In this document: positions 21,314 to 26,043 of the stretch, piece by piece
Layout: the number at the start of each line of letters is the position of its first letter
How positions within the stretch are numbered: position 1 is the first letter of the stretch
From: Coraliomargarita sp.
GTDB lineage: Bacteria > Verrucomicrobiota > Verrucomicrobiia > Opitutales > Coraliomargaritaceae
NCBI GenBank assembly: GCA_965216325.1
Contig: OZ244160.1
Span: forward strand, 2,432,001 to 2,496,000
DNA length: 64,000 nt
Direction: 5' to 3'
Translations under genes and position numbers: made by a program
Notes under the pieces: model-generated
Database searches by the model: none
What the model was told of the DNA's origin: nothing
The model's input: only the letters and a program-made list of their open reading frames with translations

Positions 21314-21383
21314 TGGAGGGCAATGCTCCGTCATTGCCGCCTCATATAACACTTCAATGGCAACGACGGAGCGTTGCCCTCCA
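21314..21383. repeat. REP-like inverted doublet (TGGAGGGCAA family)
   Basis: TGGAGGGCAATGCTCCGTCATTGCC ... GGCAACGACGGAGCGTTGCCCTCCA. Confidence 0.8.
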
Positions 21384-21394
21384 TTTTCTTTCAG

Positions 21395-22321
21395 ATGACG
21401 GAGCCCGCTCCAGCCGACAATCTTCCAGAGCTAGATGCCTTTTGTGCTCACCTCACGTTGGAGCGCCGTGTCTCGGAATACACGGTGCGCAACTATCGTC
21501 ATGCGGTGGAGAACTTCGTTGCTTGTATGGAAGAGCAGGGCAAGTGGCGAGGTGAGTTCGGCGCAGTGCGTTCGCTGGAGGTTCGTTCCTTTCTGATCGA
21601 TCAAGGACGCCGTGTCTCACGCCGCACGCTGCATAACCATGTATCGGGTTTGCGGGCCTTTTATCGCTATCTGAGGCAACAAGGACAGGTGGAGAACAAT
21701 CCATTCACTGGAGTGGCGCTGCCGAAACTGGATAAGCCACTGCCGAAGTTCTTAACTGAAGGGCAAATGCAGGCCTTGTTGAATGCGCCCACTAAGCTGT
21801 GGAAAGAGGGCAAGCTTGGAGAGTTTGAAGCCTTCCGGGATAGTTTGATTCTGGAATTGCTCTACGGGGGCGGACTGCGTGTGAGCGAACTGTGTGCCCT
21901 AAATCATGGTCAGATTGATCTGGGGCAAGGAATTGCGCGGGTGCTGGGCAAGGGCCAGAAGGAGAGGCTGTGTCCCTTAGGGCCAGTTGCCGTCCAATGC
22001 TTGAAAACTTTCGTGGAGCGCTTCGACTTGAGCGCCGATCTCAGTTCTCCAGTGATTTCGCAGAGCAATGGTCGGCGCATGGAGCCGCGCCAGATCCAAA
22101 AGCTACTCAAAGTGCACCTAGCCGCGGCCGAGTTGCCGCTCGATATGACTCCGCATAAGTTGCGCCACTCCTTTGCGACGCACATGCTGGACAACGGTGC
22201 GGATTTGCGAGCAGTGCAGGAACTTCTCGGACACGCGAATCTCTCCACCACTCAGATCTATACCCACGTTTCAATCGCACGTCTGAAGGAGGCGCACAAG
22301 CAAGCCCACCCGAGAGCATAG
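21395..22321 (+). CDS. xerC: Tyrosine recombinase XerC/XerD
   Basis: GLRVSEL, GKGQKER, PHKLRHSFATH, LRAVQELLGHANLSTTQIYTH, HPRA end. Confidence 0.9.
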   Translation: MTEPAPADNLPELDAFCAHLTLERRVSEYTVRNYRHAVENFVACMEEQGKWRGEFGAVRSLEVRSFLIDQGRRVSRRTLHNHVSGLRAFYRYLRQQGQVENNPFTGVALPKLDKPLPKFLTEGQMQALLNAPTKLWKEGKLGEFEAFRDSLILELLYGGGLRVSELCALNHGQIDLGQGIARVLGKGQKERLCPLGPVAVQCLKTFVERFDLSADLSSPVISQSNGRRMEPRQIQKLLKVHLAAAELPLDMTPHKLRHSFATHMLDNGADLRAVQELLGHANLSTTQIYTHVSIARLKEAHKQAHPRA

Positions 22322-22324
22322 CGT

Positions 22325-22870
22325 ATGCAGAATTCGAATACATATCAGCGGGCTGTTGAGCTAGCAAAGTCCGCATCTATTGGACTCGGGCGAGTGGAAT
22401 TTTTAATGAACCGTCCTGCAGAGGGCGAGCATGTGCCGGTGGATGCGCTGTATCTGGATGTGGTGCATGGGATACAAGGGGATCGCTGGGAGCGCACTGC
22501 ATGGCTGAAAACGGATACGGGTGCTCCAGATCCACGTGTTCAAGTGAGTCTGACGAATACCAGTGTGATTCGATGTTTTACGGGTGAGGCCTTAGAGTCG
22601 CAGTATCTTTGCGGTGATAATTGCTACGTGAACTTGAATTTGACGGAGGCTGTGTTGCCTGTCGGTAGTCGCTTACAAATCGGAAATGCAGTGATCGAAG
22701 TTAGTGATGTCGAAAACGATGCCTGTGGGAAGTTCGCGCAGCGCTTTGGTGTGGATGCTTTGAAGTGGGTGCGTCGGCCGGAGCACCTCTCCTTGCGCCT
22801 TCGAGGGATCTTTTGTCGTATCGAGCAGTCCGGTTGGGTTCGAGTGGGAGATCACATAAAGTTGTGCTGA
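22325..22870 (+). CDS. MOSC-domain protein
   Basis: GIQGDR, GDN..V.L, LPVGSRLQIGNAVIEV, ACGKF, LRGIFCRI..SGWVRVGD. Confidence 0.8.
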   Translation: MQNSNTYQRAVELAKSASIGLGRVEFLMNRPAEGEHVPVDALYLDVVHGIQGDRWERTAWLKTDTGAPDPRVQVSLTNTSVIRCFTGEALESQYLCGDNCYVNLNLTEAVLPVGSRLQIGNAVIEVSDVENDACGKFAQRFGVDALKWVRRPEHLSLRLRGIFCRIEQSGWVRVGDHIKLC

Positions 22871-22981
22871 TCTGTGGTATGTGTTGTGCGGTTTCTGTGG
22901 GGAGATTTTTTTGCAGGGCTAGGGTGTTTCACTTATTATTTGGTTGCGCCTGCAGGCTATCCTACTTGAGTCCGTGACATT

Positions 22982-23043
22982 ATGAAGACTGTTTGCTATC
23001 TCTTCGTTGTCATTTTTTCAGTATTGCTTCTGCGTCTGGAAGC
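22982..23043 (+). pseudogene. 5' fragment of a secreted-protein gene cut off at the IS110 remnant
   Basis: ATG at 22982 reads MKTVCYLFVVIFSVLLLRLEA (signal-peptide-like), then runs into IS110 antisense sequence. Confidence 0.4.
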
Positions 23044-23685
23044 GGTGATCTCACCGAGGTAGGCACAGATCGCCCATGCAGTCACTTTCCCAACTCCGGT
23101 GACGCTCTGGATGATTTGGGATTGTTCACGCAGTTCTTCGTTGGACTGGATGCTTTGCTCTATGCGCTCTTCGAGTGCTTTGAGCTGTTCTTCAATGAAG
23201 GCGATCATCTTTTCGATCTCCGGCTCAAGCAGAGGTTCGGCCTTCTGTAGGCGTGTCTTCTCTCTTGTGAGCATCTCGGTGAGCTGGCTGCGCCGATCCA
23301 TGAGTGTTCCCAGTTCCTGACGACAGGGATCGTTTGGTCGCGTTGGTTCGGGCTGTCGCTGCTGAGCGTAGCGTAGAAGCATCTTCGCGTCGAGCGGATC
23401 GGTTTTGGCCTTGATCCCTTCGCTGCGGGCAAAGTCTCTGACTCTGGCAGGATTGAGAAGGGTGTAGGGAAGGTTCCGCTCTTGTAGCAAGGCAAGTAAA
23501 GGACGTTCATAGCCTCCGGTTGCTTCACAGACAAGGATCGTGCCTTCGAGCTGTTTGCTGAGTATCGAAAGGAGCTGTTGAAGCCCCTTCTGTTTATAGG
23601 GCAAAGCGCAGGCGTAATCGGGTGCTTGCACTTGCAGGCTGTCTTTTGCAATATCGACAGCGATGTAACTTTTGTGCTTGGTCAT
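23044..23685 (-). pseudogene. IS110-family recombinase, C-terminally truncated
   Basis: DEDD RuvC domain (IAVDIAK, VCEATGGYE, NPARVRDFA, KTDPLDA), coiled coil, start of Tnp domain (SVTGVGKVTA); similarity stops after LGEIT and the ORF ends at 22996 in unrelated sequence. Confidence 0.92.
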
Positions 23686-23870
23686 GGTTTGTATCGGTCT
23701 TGTAGAGATGAACTCACCGCCCTTGGACAGAGGTTCCGTCAACTGTTTGATATAAAACCAGAAGGCTTCCGAGGATCACTGCTCGCTAGTGAACTCGCCG
23801 CAAGGCAGTTCGAGACGGGGTTTGATCTCATCGGAAACCGTCCCGAGGCGGCGGCCACCGCTTCGGGACT
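23686..23870 (-). ncRNA. Predicted IS110 bridge RNA
   Basis: 5' hairpin (23840-23869); target loop with guide ACCCCGTCT matching flank ACCCAGTCT 8/9; donor loop with CTACAAG complementary to element end CTTGTAG. Confidence 0.8.
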
Positions 23871-24117
23871 ACCTGGCACCTCCGACACTGCACCGTGACG
23901 AAGGCTTTTTCGAGCCCTTGCTCCGACGAGTTCTATAGACCCATTCTCGCAAGGGCTCAAAAAGCTGATTTATCATCGCGGGAAACCTACAAGACTGGGT
24001 GTGCTGATAAAGGCCAAACCTCAGTCAAAACGGTGTTAGCTACAAAAAACACCATAAAGGTGTCGCTACGGTATCACGCAGCTTAGCTGTGCTTTTGTGT
24101 CTTTTTGTGGCGATCAA

Positions 24118-26043
24118 CTACGCGTCCGGCGTCGGTTCGACGTTCTGAGCAGCCACCAAGACACGCTTACGTTCGTTGTGATGCTTGGACTTGCCGAACG
24201 GGCTGCGCCAGATGCTATACGGTAGATTCGCAAGTAAAATAAAGATCACTTGGCTGCCGACGAAGATCATCAGCCACATAAAGCCGCTATCGGTGAAACC
24301 ATAACTGTGGAGGCCGACACCGAGTAGGTTGGTGCCAAACCAAGACCAGGCCGTGACAATGTTACCGCAGATCGCCAGACTCATCAGACCTCGCTCCTTG
24401 AGCACGCCGCCCCAGCGTGCGTGCAGGAAGATTGCGGTCATCAGCACGATCATGAGTGCGCCATTTTCCTTCGGATCCCAGCCCCAGAAGCGCCCCCAGC
24501 TTTGGTCGCCCCAGATGCCACCAAGGATGGTGCCGACCAGACTGAACAAGGCAGCGAAGCAGGTGATGCCGTAAACCATTGACCCAACTGCTCTGGCGTT
24601 CTCTTTGCTAAACTTGCTCGAGAGTAGGCCTAGGAGCACAAAGATGATTGCCAATGCCCCGGCGAAGAACATCGCCGAGTAGCCGAAGGTGATCACGGTC
24701 ACGTGGGTCGCGAGCCAGAAATTCGAGTCGAGCACCGCACGCATCATTTCTAGTGTGTCGCCACTCATGGATAGATGGTGTGCGATGATGAGGGTGCAGA
24801 AACCCACCAGTGAAGCCATGCCCGCACCGATGCCGTTCTTGAAGAAGGTTTCCAGAATGATGCCGAGGAGCACCGAGCCCCAGCCAACGAAGACCGCCGA
24901 GGAATAGAGGTTGGTGACGAAGACGCCGTAGCGATCCTGAATATACATGCGCGAGATCAGCGCGAAGGTATGTAGCAAGAAACTGGATACAAGGATGACG
25001 AGGGCGGCCTTGCTCAATTCCTGAGGCCAGCGCAGCCATGAGATGCAGACGATAAAAAATACCAAGACGTAGAGCTGCATAGTCAACGAGTAGAGTTGCA
25101 TGCCGTTGATGGTGTATTCGAAATGTACGCGGTCTACGGACTCCGGGAACTCGGCTTTGAAGCGCTCGCGCATTTCGCTCACAGTTTGGTTGAACATCTC
25201 GGCATCGCCGTTGCGGTAGGCCATGGTTAGCGATGCGTAATTCATCACGTAGGGGCTCATGCCCTTGCCCTGCATCGCATCGAGTAGCTCAAGGCCGACG
25301 TTCTTCCAGTCGGCCATGTGGTCCGCGGGCGGAACGGGTGGGATCACACGTAGGTGTGCGGTGCTGGAAAGACGCATGTAGTCTTCGCCAAAGTCGATAA
25401 AGGCGCGCAGCAGTTCGGCATCGTAGTCTTCGCCGGTTTGTTGCTTACGCAGTGCATCCAGTCCAGGGCCGATCATGCCAGTGTAGGTCGCATATTCGTC
25501 GACCAGCTTATCGAGGCGCGCGCCATCACCGATTGGGTGTAGCGAGTGCATGACACGGTTGTAAAGGTTGAGGCCGTTGTAGAGTTTGGCGAGCTGCTGC
25601 TCATAGGGCTGGCGCTGTTTTGGCTCGGGATTGATCTTCTCGAACAAGCTCTGGATCTCCGCGAAGTGTGGGCTGAGATCATTGAAGGAGTAGTGGCGTT
25701 GGCCCTCCTGTGCGAGGCCTTCGATGCCCAAGTCATCTGGAAACTCGATTTTGAATACGCGGTAGGTGTCGGCCAGTTCCGGCTTGAAGCTCAGATCCAT
25801 GAACCACTCCAGTGGTGAGAGCGTCACGCCCTCGGGGGTCTTGACCTTCTGTTGCTTGGCGAGCACCAGCAGGGTGTTGCGTGCAATCGCATCGATCGGT
25901 TTGATGCGTCCGCCCTCTTGCACCGACAATTCGCCAAAGGCATCGATGTCGAATTCGGTCTCGTTGGTCGATGGACGGAAGTGGCGCCCAAGCACCATCA
26001 GAACGAGCAAGGCGATAACACTGTAGATAATCGTCTTTTTCAT
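24118..26043 (-). CDS. ccsA: Cytochrome c biogenesis protein CcsA (system II, WWD domain)
   Basis: GGRIKPID, TNLYSS, VLDSNFWLATHV, GTILGGIWGDQSWGRFWGWDPKE, GLHSY. Confidence 0.93.
   Translation of the reverse strand: MKKTIIYSVIALLVLMVLGRHFRPSTNETEFDIDAFGELSVQEGGRIKPIDAIARNTLLVLAKQQKVKTPEGVTLSPLEWFMDLSFKPELADTYRVFKIEFPDDLGIEGLAQEGQRHYSFNDLSPHFAEIQSLFEKINPEPKQRQPYEQQLAKLYNGLNLYNRVMHSLHPIGDGARLDKLVDEYATYTGMIGPGLDALRKQQTGEDYDAELLRAFIDFGEDYMRLSSTAHLRVIPPVPPADHMADWKNVGLELLDAMQGKGMSPYVMNYASLTMAYRNGDAEMFNQTVSEMRERFKAEFPESVDRVHFEYTINGMQLYSLTMQLYVLVFFIVCISWLRWPQELSKAALVILVSSFLLHTFALISRMYIQDRYGVFVTNLYSSAVFVGWGSVLLGIILETFFKNGIGAGMASLVGFCTLIIAHHLSMSGDTLEMMRAVLDSNFWLATHVTVITFGYSAMFFAGALAIIFVLLGLLSSKFSKENARAVGSMVYGITCFAALFSLVGTILGGIWGDQSWGRFWGWDPKENGALMIVLMTAIFLHARWGGVLKERGLMSLAICGNIVTAWSWFGTNLLGVGLHSYGFTDSGFMWLMIFVGSQVIFILLANLPYSIWRSPFGKSKHHNERKRVLVAAQNVEPTPDA

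Follow-up and report, generated by a model that had tools for sequence, protein, structure and literature searches.

Does the structured DNA in front of a recombinase gene of the IS110 group in Coraliomargarita sp. encode a bridge RNA, and can the sites such an RNA would recognize be read from its letters? A bridge RNA and its recombinase are known from IS621, an IS110-group insertion sequence (IS) of Escherichia coli (Durrant et al., 2024, PMC11208160; Hiraizumi et al., 2024, PMC11208158). The locus studied here lies in a 64,000-nucleotide (nt) stretch of contig OZ244160.1 (positions 2,432,001 to 2,496,000), hereafter the window, whose coordinates are used throughout. Positions 23686-23991 of the minus strand are very probably the 306-nt left end of an IS110-group element and encode a bridge RNA. 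Its target loop spells a sequence that is present in multiple unoccupied copies in the host genome. The copy itself is a recently truncated, immobile relic, a readable fossil guide with no working recombinase system.

On the minus strand, host sequence ...AGGTTTGGCCTTTATCAGCACACCCAGT-CT (24021-23992) is followed by TGTAGG... from 23991, and the predicted RNA is encoded directly upstream of, and in the same sense as, an open reading frame (ORF) matching PF01548 (Table 1). The ATG of this recombinase gene is at 23685, the donor module closing 2 nt before it. In relatives whose left flank is available, the two-base core before TGTAGG is CT nearly always and GC in L120. An earlier note on this DNA, made from the letters alone, had proposed a bridge RNA here, and every string and coordinate that it listed is present: the hairpin at 23869-23840, the loop strands ACCCCGTCT, CTAGCGAG, ACAGTTGAC and CTACAAG, the flank ACCCAGTCT, TGTAG at 23991 and the ATG.

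Table 1. Coordinates of the relic element, its predicted RNA modules and the repeat that it occupies (window positions unless stated otherwise; REP, repetitive extragenic palindromic).
Feature	Position	Strand	Basis or remark
Host DNA left of element, 5' part of diverged REP-like repeat copy	23994..24021	-	ends in left target ACCCAGT (24000-23994)
CT core dinucleotide, left junction	23992..23993	-	read in window
IS110-group left end, 306 nt, starts TGTAGG, very probably encodes bridge RNA	23686..23991	-	16-left-end alignment A1, consensus fold, pair counts
Hairpin H1, long stem, invariant loop motifs CGAGAATGGG / CTCGTCGGAG	23904..23964	-	covariation-supported core 23959-23911
Hairpin H2, sequence variable, pairing conserved	23880..23903	-	helix 4: both sides changed in 5/5 pairs
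Hairpin H3, the "5' hairpin" of the earlier note	23840..23869	-	helix 5: both sides changed in 13/13 pairs
Predicted target-binding module	23765..23838	-	outer stem 23838-23824 / 23777-23765, inner hairpin 23811-23791; helices 6-8
Left target guide ACCCCGT+CT (ACCCCGTCT), target top-strand sense	23813..23821	-	flank 8/9; unoccupied host repeats 9/9
Right target guide CTAGCGAG	23782..23789	-	effective part AGCG+AG (23787-23782), reverse complement of CT-CGCT
CA, candidate handshake guide after right target guide	23780..23781	-	complementary to donor's final TG; putative
Predicted donor-binding module	23687..23758	-	outer stem 23758-23749 / 23695-23687, inner hairpin 23736-23710; helices 9, 10
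Left donor guide ACAGTTG; loop strand ACAGTTGAC spans 23746-23738	23740..23746	-	right ends of relatives
Right donor guide CTACAAG	23699..23705	-	reverse complement of CT-TGTAG (core + element's first 5 nt)
AC, candidate handshake guide after right donor guide	23697..23698	-	complementary to target positions 6-7 (GT)
Recombinase gene, retained part (residues 1-214)	23044..23685	-	RuvC-like DEDD domain, coiled coil, first Tnp helices
Unrelated 15-codon tail and stop codon from host DNA	22996..23043	-	past the break
Deletion junction, 9 nt TGAGATCAC	23045..23053	-	common to element interior and native host sequence
REP-like repeat, examples	G000:C1 464655-464739, 468278-468362, 1277815-1277885, 2126174-2126256		own genome, outside window

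The 305 nt preceding the ATG fold with a z-score of -4.77, and none of 100 shuffled sequences folded as well. Sixteen distinct left ends were aligned (alignment A1), comprising those of the window, of the relatives L023 and L026, and of 13 elements from named metagenome-assembled genomes whose record titles read Opitutales, Puniceicoccaceae, Coraliomargarita or Pontiella. From this alignment RNAalifold gave five modules, namely the hairpins H1, H2 and H3 and then two modules each made of a stem, an internal loop and a hairpin, with 10 helices and 65 pairs in the consensus structure. A standard pair was formed in 92.9% of the alignment cells, compared with 76.8% in shuffled alignments, and 43 of the 65 pairs were altered on both sides, compared with 25.0 in shuffles; none of 500 shuffles reached any of the five measures. 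Sliding the registers by 1-3 columns left at most 46.2% of cells paired. The slid-register control is lenient because the structure was derived from the same sequences, and the compensatory changes are the stronger point. The covariation among homologous left ends that the earlier note had proposed to look for is therefore present, and the fold, the covariation and the PF01548 ORF bear out its assignment to an IS110-group bridge RNA with the IS621-type layout. Its guess at a verrucomicrobial lineage agrees with the record titles of the relatives (Opitutales, Puniceicoccaceae and Coraliomargarita, all Verrucomicrobiota). H3 had been drawn correctly, and two conserved hairpins upstream of it, at about 23964-23904 and 23903-23880, had been overlooked. 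An Rfam scan of 22500-24500 with E values up to 10 returned no match in the left end; its two matches, both at chance level (E = 0.33 and 5.1), lie inside the recombinase ORF (23563-23648 and 23104-23176).

The same alignment bears on whether the matches described below are due to chance, or whether the region instead encodes a small protein. A 35-amino-acid (aa) ORF that begins with ATG exists in the window (23976-23869), and 13 of 16 relatives have an ATG 16-18 nt from the start of the left end, but it is missing in the other 3, the hairpin lengths vary by non-multiples of three, and compensatory pair changes dominate. Chance is also contradicted by the predicted 13-mer target, observed 9 times in the host genome where 0.10 occurrences are expected. 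This explanation is hardly credible, and the small-ORF reading of the left end was rejected on the missing ATGs, the length variation and the compensatory changes.

If the left end is a bridge RNA, its loop strands should be related to the DNA flanking each element. Under the published rule the left target guide has the sense of the target top strand and the right target guide is the reverse complement, both including the core (PMC11208160). The left guide of the window, ACCCCGTCT, agrees with the flank ACCCAGTCT (24000-23992) at 8 of 9 positions. The right guide was placed in the register AGCG+AG because AGC is conserved in the right strand of the alignment. Guides and flanks were then scored in two sets of elements, using the best ungapped register and giving the controls equal freedom. 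Set 1 consisted of the A1 elements, with identical sites within one family counted once; L032 and L049 were left out for having less than 9 nt of left flank, and the window, L049 and L057 for lacking a right end or a 7-nt right flank. Set 2 consisted of 28 metagenome loci in which the loop strands and ends had been located by an automatic procedure, with identical loop/flank pairs counted once; these were drawn from the 32 loci L120-L151 after removal of L126 (no ATG), L146 (upstream DNA shorter than 200 nt), and L149 and L151 (left end of a different type). In set 1, the left guide matched its own flank at 8 or more of 9 positions in 14/16 cases, compared with 4/240 for non-cognate pairs, and the right guide matched at 6 or more of 7 positions (core plus 5 nt) in 7/13 cognate and 8/195 non-cognate pairs. 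In set 2, the same left-guide threshold was reached by 7/17 cognate and 11/421 non-cognate pairs, 14/17 cognate pairs reaching at least 7/9, and the right-guide threshold by 23/24 cognate and 75/642 non-cognate pairs.

These comparisons bear on a different explanation, in which the structured left end is a leader governing translation or stability of the recombinase mRNA and the loop-flank matches are by-products of a site preference set by the protein. With the outer stem of the donor module closing 2 nt before the ATG and no Shine-Dalgarno-like motif apparent, the structure could gate translation. However, the loop strands change in step with the flanks on a constant scaffold, which a preference set by the protein would not produce, and the layout is the one found in IS621, where experiments have shown RNA guidance (PMC11208160). 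We regard a mere leader as very unlikely and continue to read the left end as a bridge RNA.

The target predicted from the guides, ACCCCGT-CT-CGCT, was found as 9 exact, unoccupied copies in the 3.06-Mb host genome, compared with 0.10 expected by composition; targets built likewise from the other 15 left ends occur there 0-4 times. All 9 sites occupy the same place in one REP-like repeat, ..AAGGTTTGG.CT.AT.GGCACC-ACCCCGTCT-CGCT.CGCGATCCACCCCTCCTCGTCAAGGAGGGGAGC.., at whose 5' edge the target site lies and which includes an internal palindrome (CCCCTCCTCGTCAAGGAGGGG). CGCT follows the core in 9/9 of these sites. A profile made from the nine repeat copies gave 32 hits in the element's own genome at an E value of 1e-3 or better, and positions 23992-24021 of the window are a partial copy of the repeat. 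The repeat surfaced only through the search with the guide-derived target; the 14-nt left flank, searched in the own genome with up to 2 mismatches, produced chance-like matches only. Two metagenome contigs carry an unoccupied site that shares the 30-nt flank of the window (23992-24021) and reads ...ACCCAGT-CT-CGCTTC..., and an exact 22-nt pattern consisting of the left target guide and its neighbours had no match in metagenome contigs. In G013, the genome that harbors the closest relative, a 12-mer built from that relative's own guides occurs 6 times and its reversed control 0 times. The earlier note had named this target, and it had correctly placed three of the four guides: the left target guide, the right target guide (register ...AGCGAG) and the right donor guide.

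The fourth guide, the left strand of the donor loop, was corrected from the right ends of relatives. The right donor guide CTACAAG matches the core and TGTAG at 7/7 positions in the window, as the reverse complement. At the other end, where the right junction of the window copy (left core CT, 23993-23992) has been deleted, 25 relatives were used; their right ends were located by the motif ACA[G/A]TTG just past the stop codon, leaving the next two bases unconstrained, and these bases were CT in 25/25. The right-flank letters of the second, metagenome set also begin with CT. The right end of these relatives extends about 10 nt beyond the stop codon, and their left end is about 300 nt. L035, L036 and L040 have ACAATTG in both the right end and the loop, and the others have ACAGTTG in both; L023, whose donor-loop strand is identical to that of the window, has a right end that finishes ...ACACAGTTG|CT. 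Because the relatives' right ends finish with ACAGTTG before CT, the donor is predicted to be ACAGTTG-CT-TGTAGG, and the form CAGTTGA-CT-TGTAG suggested previously is not supported. With the right end corrected, the circle junction would read ..GTTGCTTGTAGG and contain TTGCTT; the possible -35 box TTGACT that had been foreseen at the junction is accordingly not supported. The two loop bases AC (23739-23738) that follow the left donor guide face the core without matching CT, and the clade shows AC, AA, TT, AT and CA at these positions.

Two further dinucleotides were considered in the light of the handshake-guide concept (PMC11208158). CA (23781-23780) is complementary to the final TG of the donor; its first base is C in 45/46 aligned left ends, and the last base of the donor is always G. 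This pattern is compatible with the handshake idea and proves nothing.

Several observations weigh against a bridge RNA with the guides assigned here. The left guide of the window has one mismatch to its own flank (C versus A), which is explained by the left flank being the 5' part of a diverged repeat copy. Positions 5-6 (AG) of the 8-nt right guide originally proposed are matched in 0/9 host sites, so the effective right guide would be 4 nt plus the core; for IS621, the methods of PMC11208160 likewise give an effective right target guide of 4 nt plus the core. Among the other elements, the left guide of L026, a frameshifted copy, scores only 5/9, and those of L120, L122 and L150 score 4-5/9, where the automatically assigned element start may be wrong. 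Right guides score 3/7 in L033 and 4/7 in L034 and L056 (L147, a second copy with the RNA of L056, scores 7/7), and L034 and L059 fit only after a shift of 1 nt. The window's own right end is lost, and its donor register was deduced from relatives with at most 67% protein identity. The complementarity of the second candidate handshake guide, AC (23698-23697), to the target is weak, at 10/17 (nucleotide 1) and 11/17 (nucleotide 2) distinct left ends; 135 and 440 of 2000 shuffles reached these values, which are not significant. The searches for a promoter and for RNA count on the same side: a scan for sigma-70-like promoters found 0 sites in 23600-24200, and RNA-library contigs covering the bridge RNA were not found, the single match (23337-23530) lying inside the ORF. 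That item is a contig, hence shows neither strand nor ends and says nothing about expression. A convincing -10 box was not found in the left end, where an ATGA is conserved 16-18 nt in, and four runs that are possibly RNA of the same organism contained next to none of the sampled words. A promoter at the circle junction cannot form, since the right end is gone. Because no promoter was found and the right end that would supply a junction promoter is missing, this copy may be silent.

That missing right end belongs to a larger truncation, which the earlier note had overlooked together with the cut in the recombinase gene. The ORF runs for 229 codons from 23685 to 22996 and matches PF01548 with E = 2.3e-22, the sole family matched; PF02371, the Tnp domain with the catalytic serine, was not found in it, and the ORF does not amount to a complete recombinase. 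Intact relatives, of 310 aa, hold both domains. The gene is cut after residue 214 of about 310, and the right end and right flank are gone. DEDD positions D11, E54, D96 and D99 were assigned by eye in the window protein. Among relatives with readable DNA, L023 comes closest; this complete element, about 1.25 kb long, lies in G013, a genome of the same family. Over residues 1-218 of its 310-aa protein (positions 22-954 of L023, minus strand) the window protein is 67% identical, and it diverges after that. This was the best protein identity in a search of 61 related genomes, and scans of genome contigs and of metagenome contigs each reached 54% at the highest; an intact copy with the same guides was not among the relatives whose DNA was readable in full. 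The Tnp motif ..YN.D(S/T)GK.., which lies in the region of the IS621 catalytic serine, has Thr in L023 where L036 has Ser.

Versions of the element that continue past this break are present elsewhere. In metagenome runs X5, X6 and X7, contigs agree with the window, apart from 0-2 differences, over a stretch that begins at 23993 or 24001 and reaches 23045, and past 23045 they share 30 identical letters that continue into the Tnp domain. Translated by hand, these letters give ..GEIT|QVNRAQLAAL, and L023 has GEITQVNRAQVAAL at that place. One contig from X5 is 1257 nt long, the size of a whole element, and has 2 differences over 949 nt. On the other side of the break, G001, a genome of the same genus, is a 99% match to the window below and including 23053, and above that position the two are unrelated. 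Since TGAGATCAC (23053-23045) belongs to both parent sequences, we infer a deletion by microhomology at these 9 nt, which took away the final 96 codons together with the right end, the right flank and host DNA. Within the lost codons lies the part where IS621 has its catalytic serine, S241 (PMC11208158). The loss is recent, because the retained part is free of frameshifts and nearly identical to the metagenome copies. A DNA search of the own genome found a single copy of this element, and a protein search of the own genome found only the window protein itself. The intact copies that the earlier note had suggested looking for are thus absent from the own genome, and near-identical copies running on past the break are found in the X5-X7 contigs. 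As for its description of a natural guide for a programmable recombinase, the guide is readable, but the recombinase is cut, the right end lost and a second genome copy lacking. This copy is able neither to move nor to make its enzyme.

The original right flank at the locus was not recovered when the empty site was sought in the same-genus genomes G001, G002 and G003. G001 shares only the side below 23053, the G002 alignment reaches only the stop codon of the upstream gene (24125), and G003 has no match at the locus. The strain of run X7 has about 3.3 kb of other DNA at this place. In G002, a 302-aa membrane-anchored ORF (L114 2101-3009) stands at the place of the relic, between the genes for the MOSC-domain and cytochrome c assembly-like proteins, and only the N-terminal part of that ORF is present in G001; gene content here varies among strains.

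An RNA gene that survives next to a broken enzyme gene could still be in use, guiding a recombinase in trans (that of another IS110-family element or of an incoming intact copy) on at least 9 host repeats. This RNA gene, still intact, shares 99.8-100% identity with the near-identical metagenome copies, exact targets are present in the genome, and so are 10 other IS110-family recombinase genes. However, the other recombinases are not detectably similar to the window protein in the own-genome protein search, and their layout is IS1111-like, the right end being long. Moreover, no promoter was found, the terminator-like hairpin (24064-24048) separates the upstream gene from the element, and with no donor junction the donor loop has nothing to bring in. 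An RNA still at work in trans is accordingly judged highly improbable, and the copy is best read as a relic.

The first of the 5' hairpins has properties that stand out from the rest of the RNA. Helix 1 (H1) is paired in 97.7% of cells, with both sides changed in 7/11 pairs, and its loop motifs vary as little as the donor loop does, its stem showing covariation. Both loop motifs were found, in order, on the sense strand of 44/160 relatives' loci, many of which have too little upstream DNA, and on the opposite strand of 0. The carriers include relatives at only 33-38% protein identity. In L076, H1 stands directly before the target module, in place of the single 5' stem-loop. One tentative possibility, which we hold to be rather less probable than its negation, is that H1 (loop motifs CGAGAAUGGG / CUCGUCGGAG) is an extra module of a bridge RNA of about 275 nt that binds the recombinase or a host factor, unlike IS621. 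Hiraizumi et al. describe 5' stem-loops as conserved in structure and diverse in sequence (PMC11208158), and because of that description a sequence-conserved H1 is a small departure.

The comparison with IS621 extends to most parts of the element. Both have a long left end, which encodes the RNA, and a very short right end (here known from relatives); CT is the core, read here at the left junction, and the target loop precedes the donor loop. Left guides have the top-strand sense and right guides are reverse complements that include the core; nine bases make up the left target guide, and four plus the core the effective right one. As in IS621, the recombinases of intact relatives combine a DEDD RuvC-like domain with a coiled coil and a Tnp domain, and the natural target is a repetitive extragenic sequence in each case. 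That IS621 targets repetitive extragenic sequences is reportedly the subject of a 2003 paper by Choi et al., to go by its title. Unlike IS621, the left end measures 306 nt (versus 191 bp), there are three 5' hairpins (versus one), and H1 has invariant loop sequences, in contrast to IS621-type 5' stem-loops, which are said to be sequence-diverse. The two left-donor-guide bases facing the core mismatch CT and differ between members of the clade, intact relatives have a recombinase of 310 aa (versus 326), the present copy is truncated, and the clade is known from sequence alone.

Two other groups provide points of comparison. ISPpu9 and ISPpu10 of Pseudomonas putida are IS110-family elements that, according to the abstracts describing them, insert into many near-identical copies of an extragenic repeat (PMC12288879; bioRxiv 10.64898/2026.03.19.712850); at the level of those abstracts, they differ from the element described here in host phylum, in sequence and in the repeat. 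IS1111-group elements have the same recombinase family and RNA-guided recognition of target and donor, and their bridge or seek RNA is described as lying downstream of the recombinase gene in a long right end (PMC11208160). In contrast, the RNA studied here lies upstream of the gene, the left end is long and the right end of relatives is about 10 nt. A second IS110-family element of about 1.49 kb is present in the own genome in 9-10 nearly identical copies (L004-L011, e.g. G000:C1 about 904175-905665). With a left end of about 55 nt and a right end of about 350 nt it has an IS1111-like layout, and its guide RNA, if any, should be downstream of the gene. A 389-aa relative of this second element (G000:C1 2769593) is located about 120 nt past a copy of the REP-like repeat.

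Around the relic, a terminator-like hairpin followed by a T run (24048-24064, minus strand) lies between a gene for a 641-aa cytochrome c assembly-like protein (24118-26043) and the element. On the other side are a gene for a XerC/D-type tyrosine recombinase (21374-22321, plus strand; PF00589, PF02899) and a MOSC-domain gene (22325-22870, plus strand), which look like ordinary host genes.

For an intact element, the following mechanism can be proposed, in which we infer transcription, RNA-protein binding and the chemistry of recombination by analogy with IS621. The bridge RNA would consist of the three 5' hairpins and then the two modules of stem, internal loop and hairpin. In the target loop, the right strand AGCG+AG would pair with the top strand, and both strands together would specify ACCCCGT-CT-CGCT. 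In the donor loop, the partner of ACAGTTG would be the final 7 nt of the element, and that of CTACAAG the core and the element's first 5 nt. By homology to IS621, the 310-aa DEDD/serine recombinase would act as a tetramer holding two bridge RNAs; strand exchange would take place at the CT core, and a circle of roughly 1.25 kb would be inserted into the repeat. The present copy inserted into a slightly diverged repeat (ACCCAGT-CT), and all that follows residue 214, the right end with it, was lost later.

The system belongs to a known kind, RNA-guided IS110 elements having been known since 2024, and is otherwise an expected IS110 feature; the clade may already be listed in the orthologue tables of PMC11208160. 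Tool builders would be served by the intact relatives (e.g. L023, L036, L040 and L051) and the near-identical metagenome copies, not by the truncated copy. What the locus offers is a guide whose letters could be read from sequence and then checked against the host, where the predicted target proved to be a multi-copy repeat. It adds to the known diversity of bridge recombinases a clade, mostly from Verrucomicrobiota, with a compact 310-aa recombinase and with a sequence-conserved 5' hairpin, H1, that the IS621 model does not explain.

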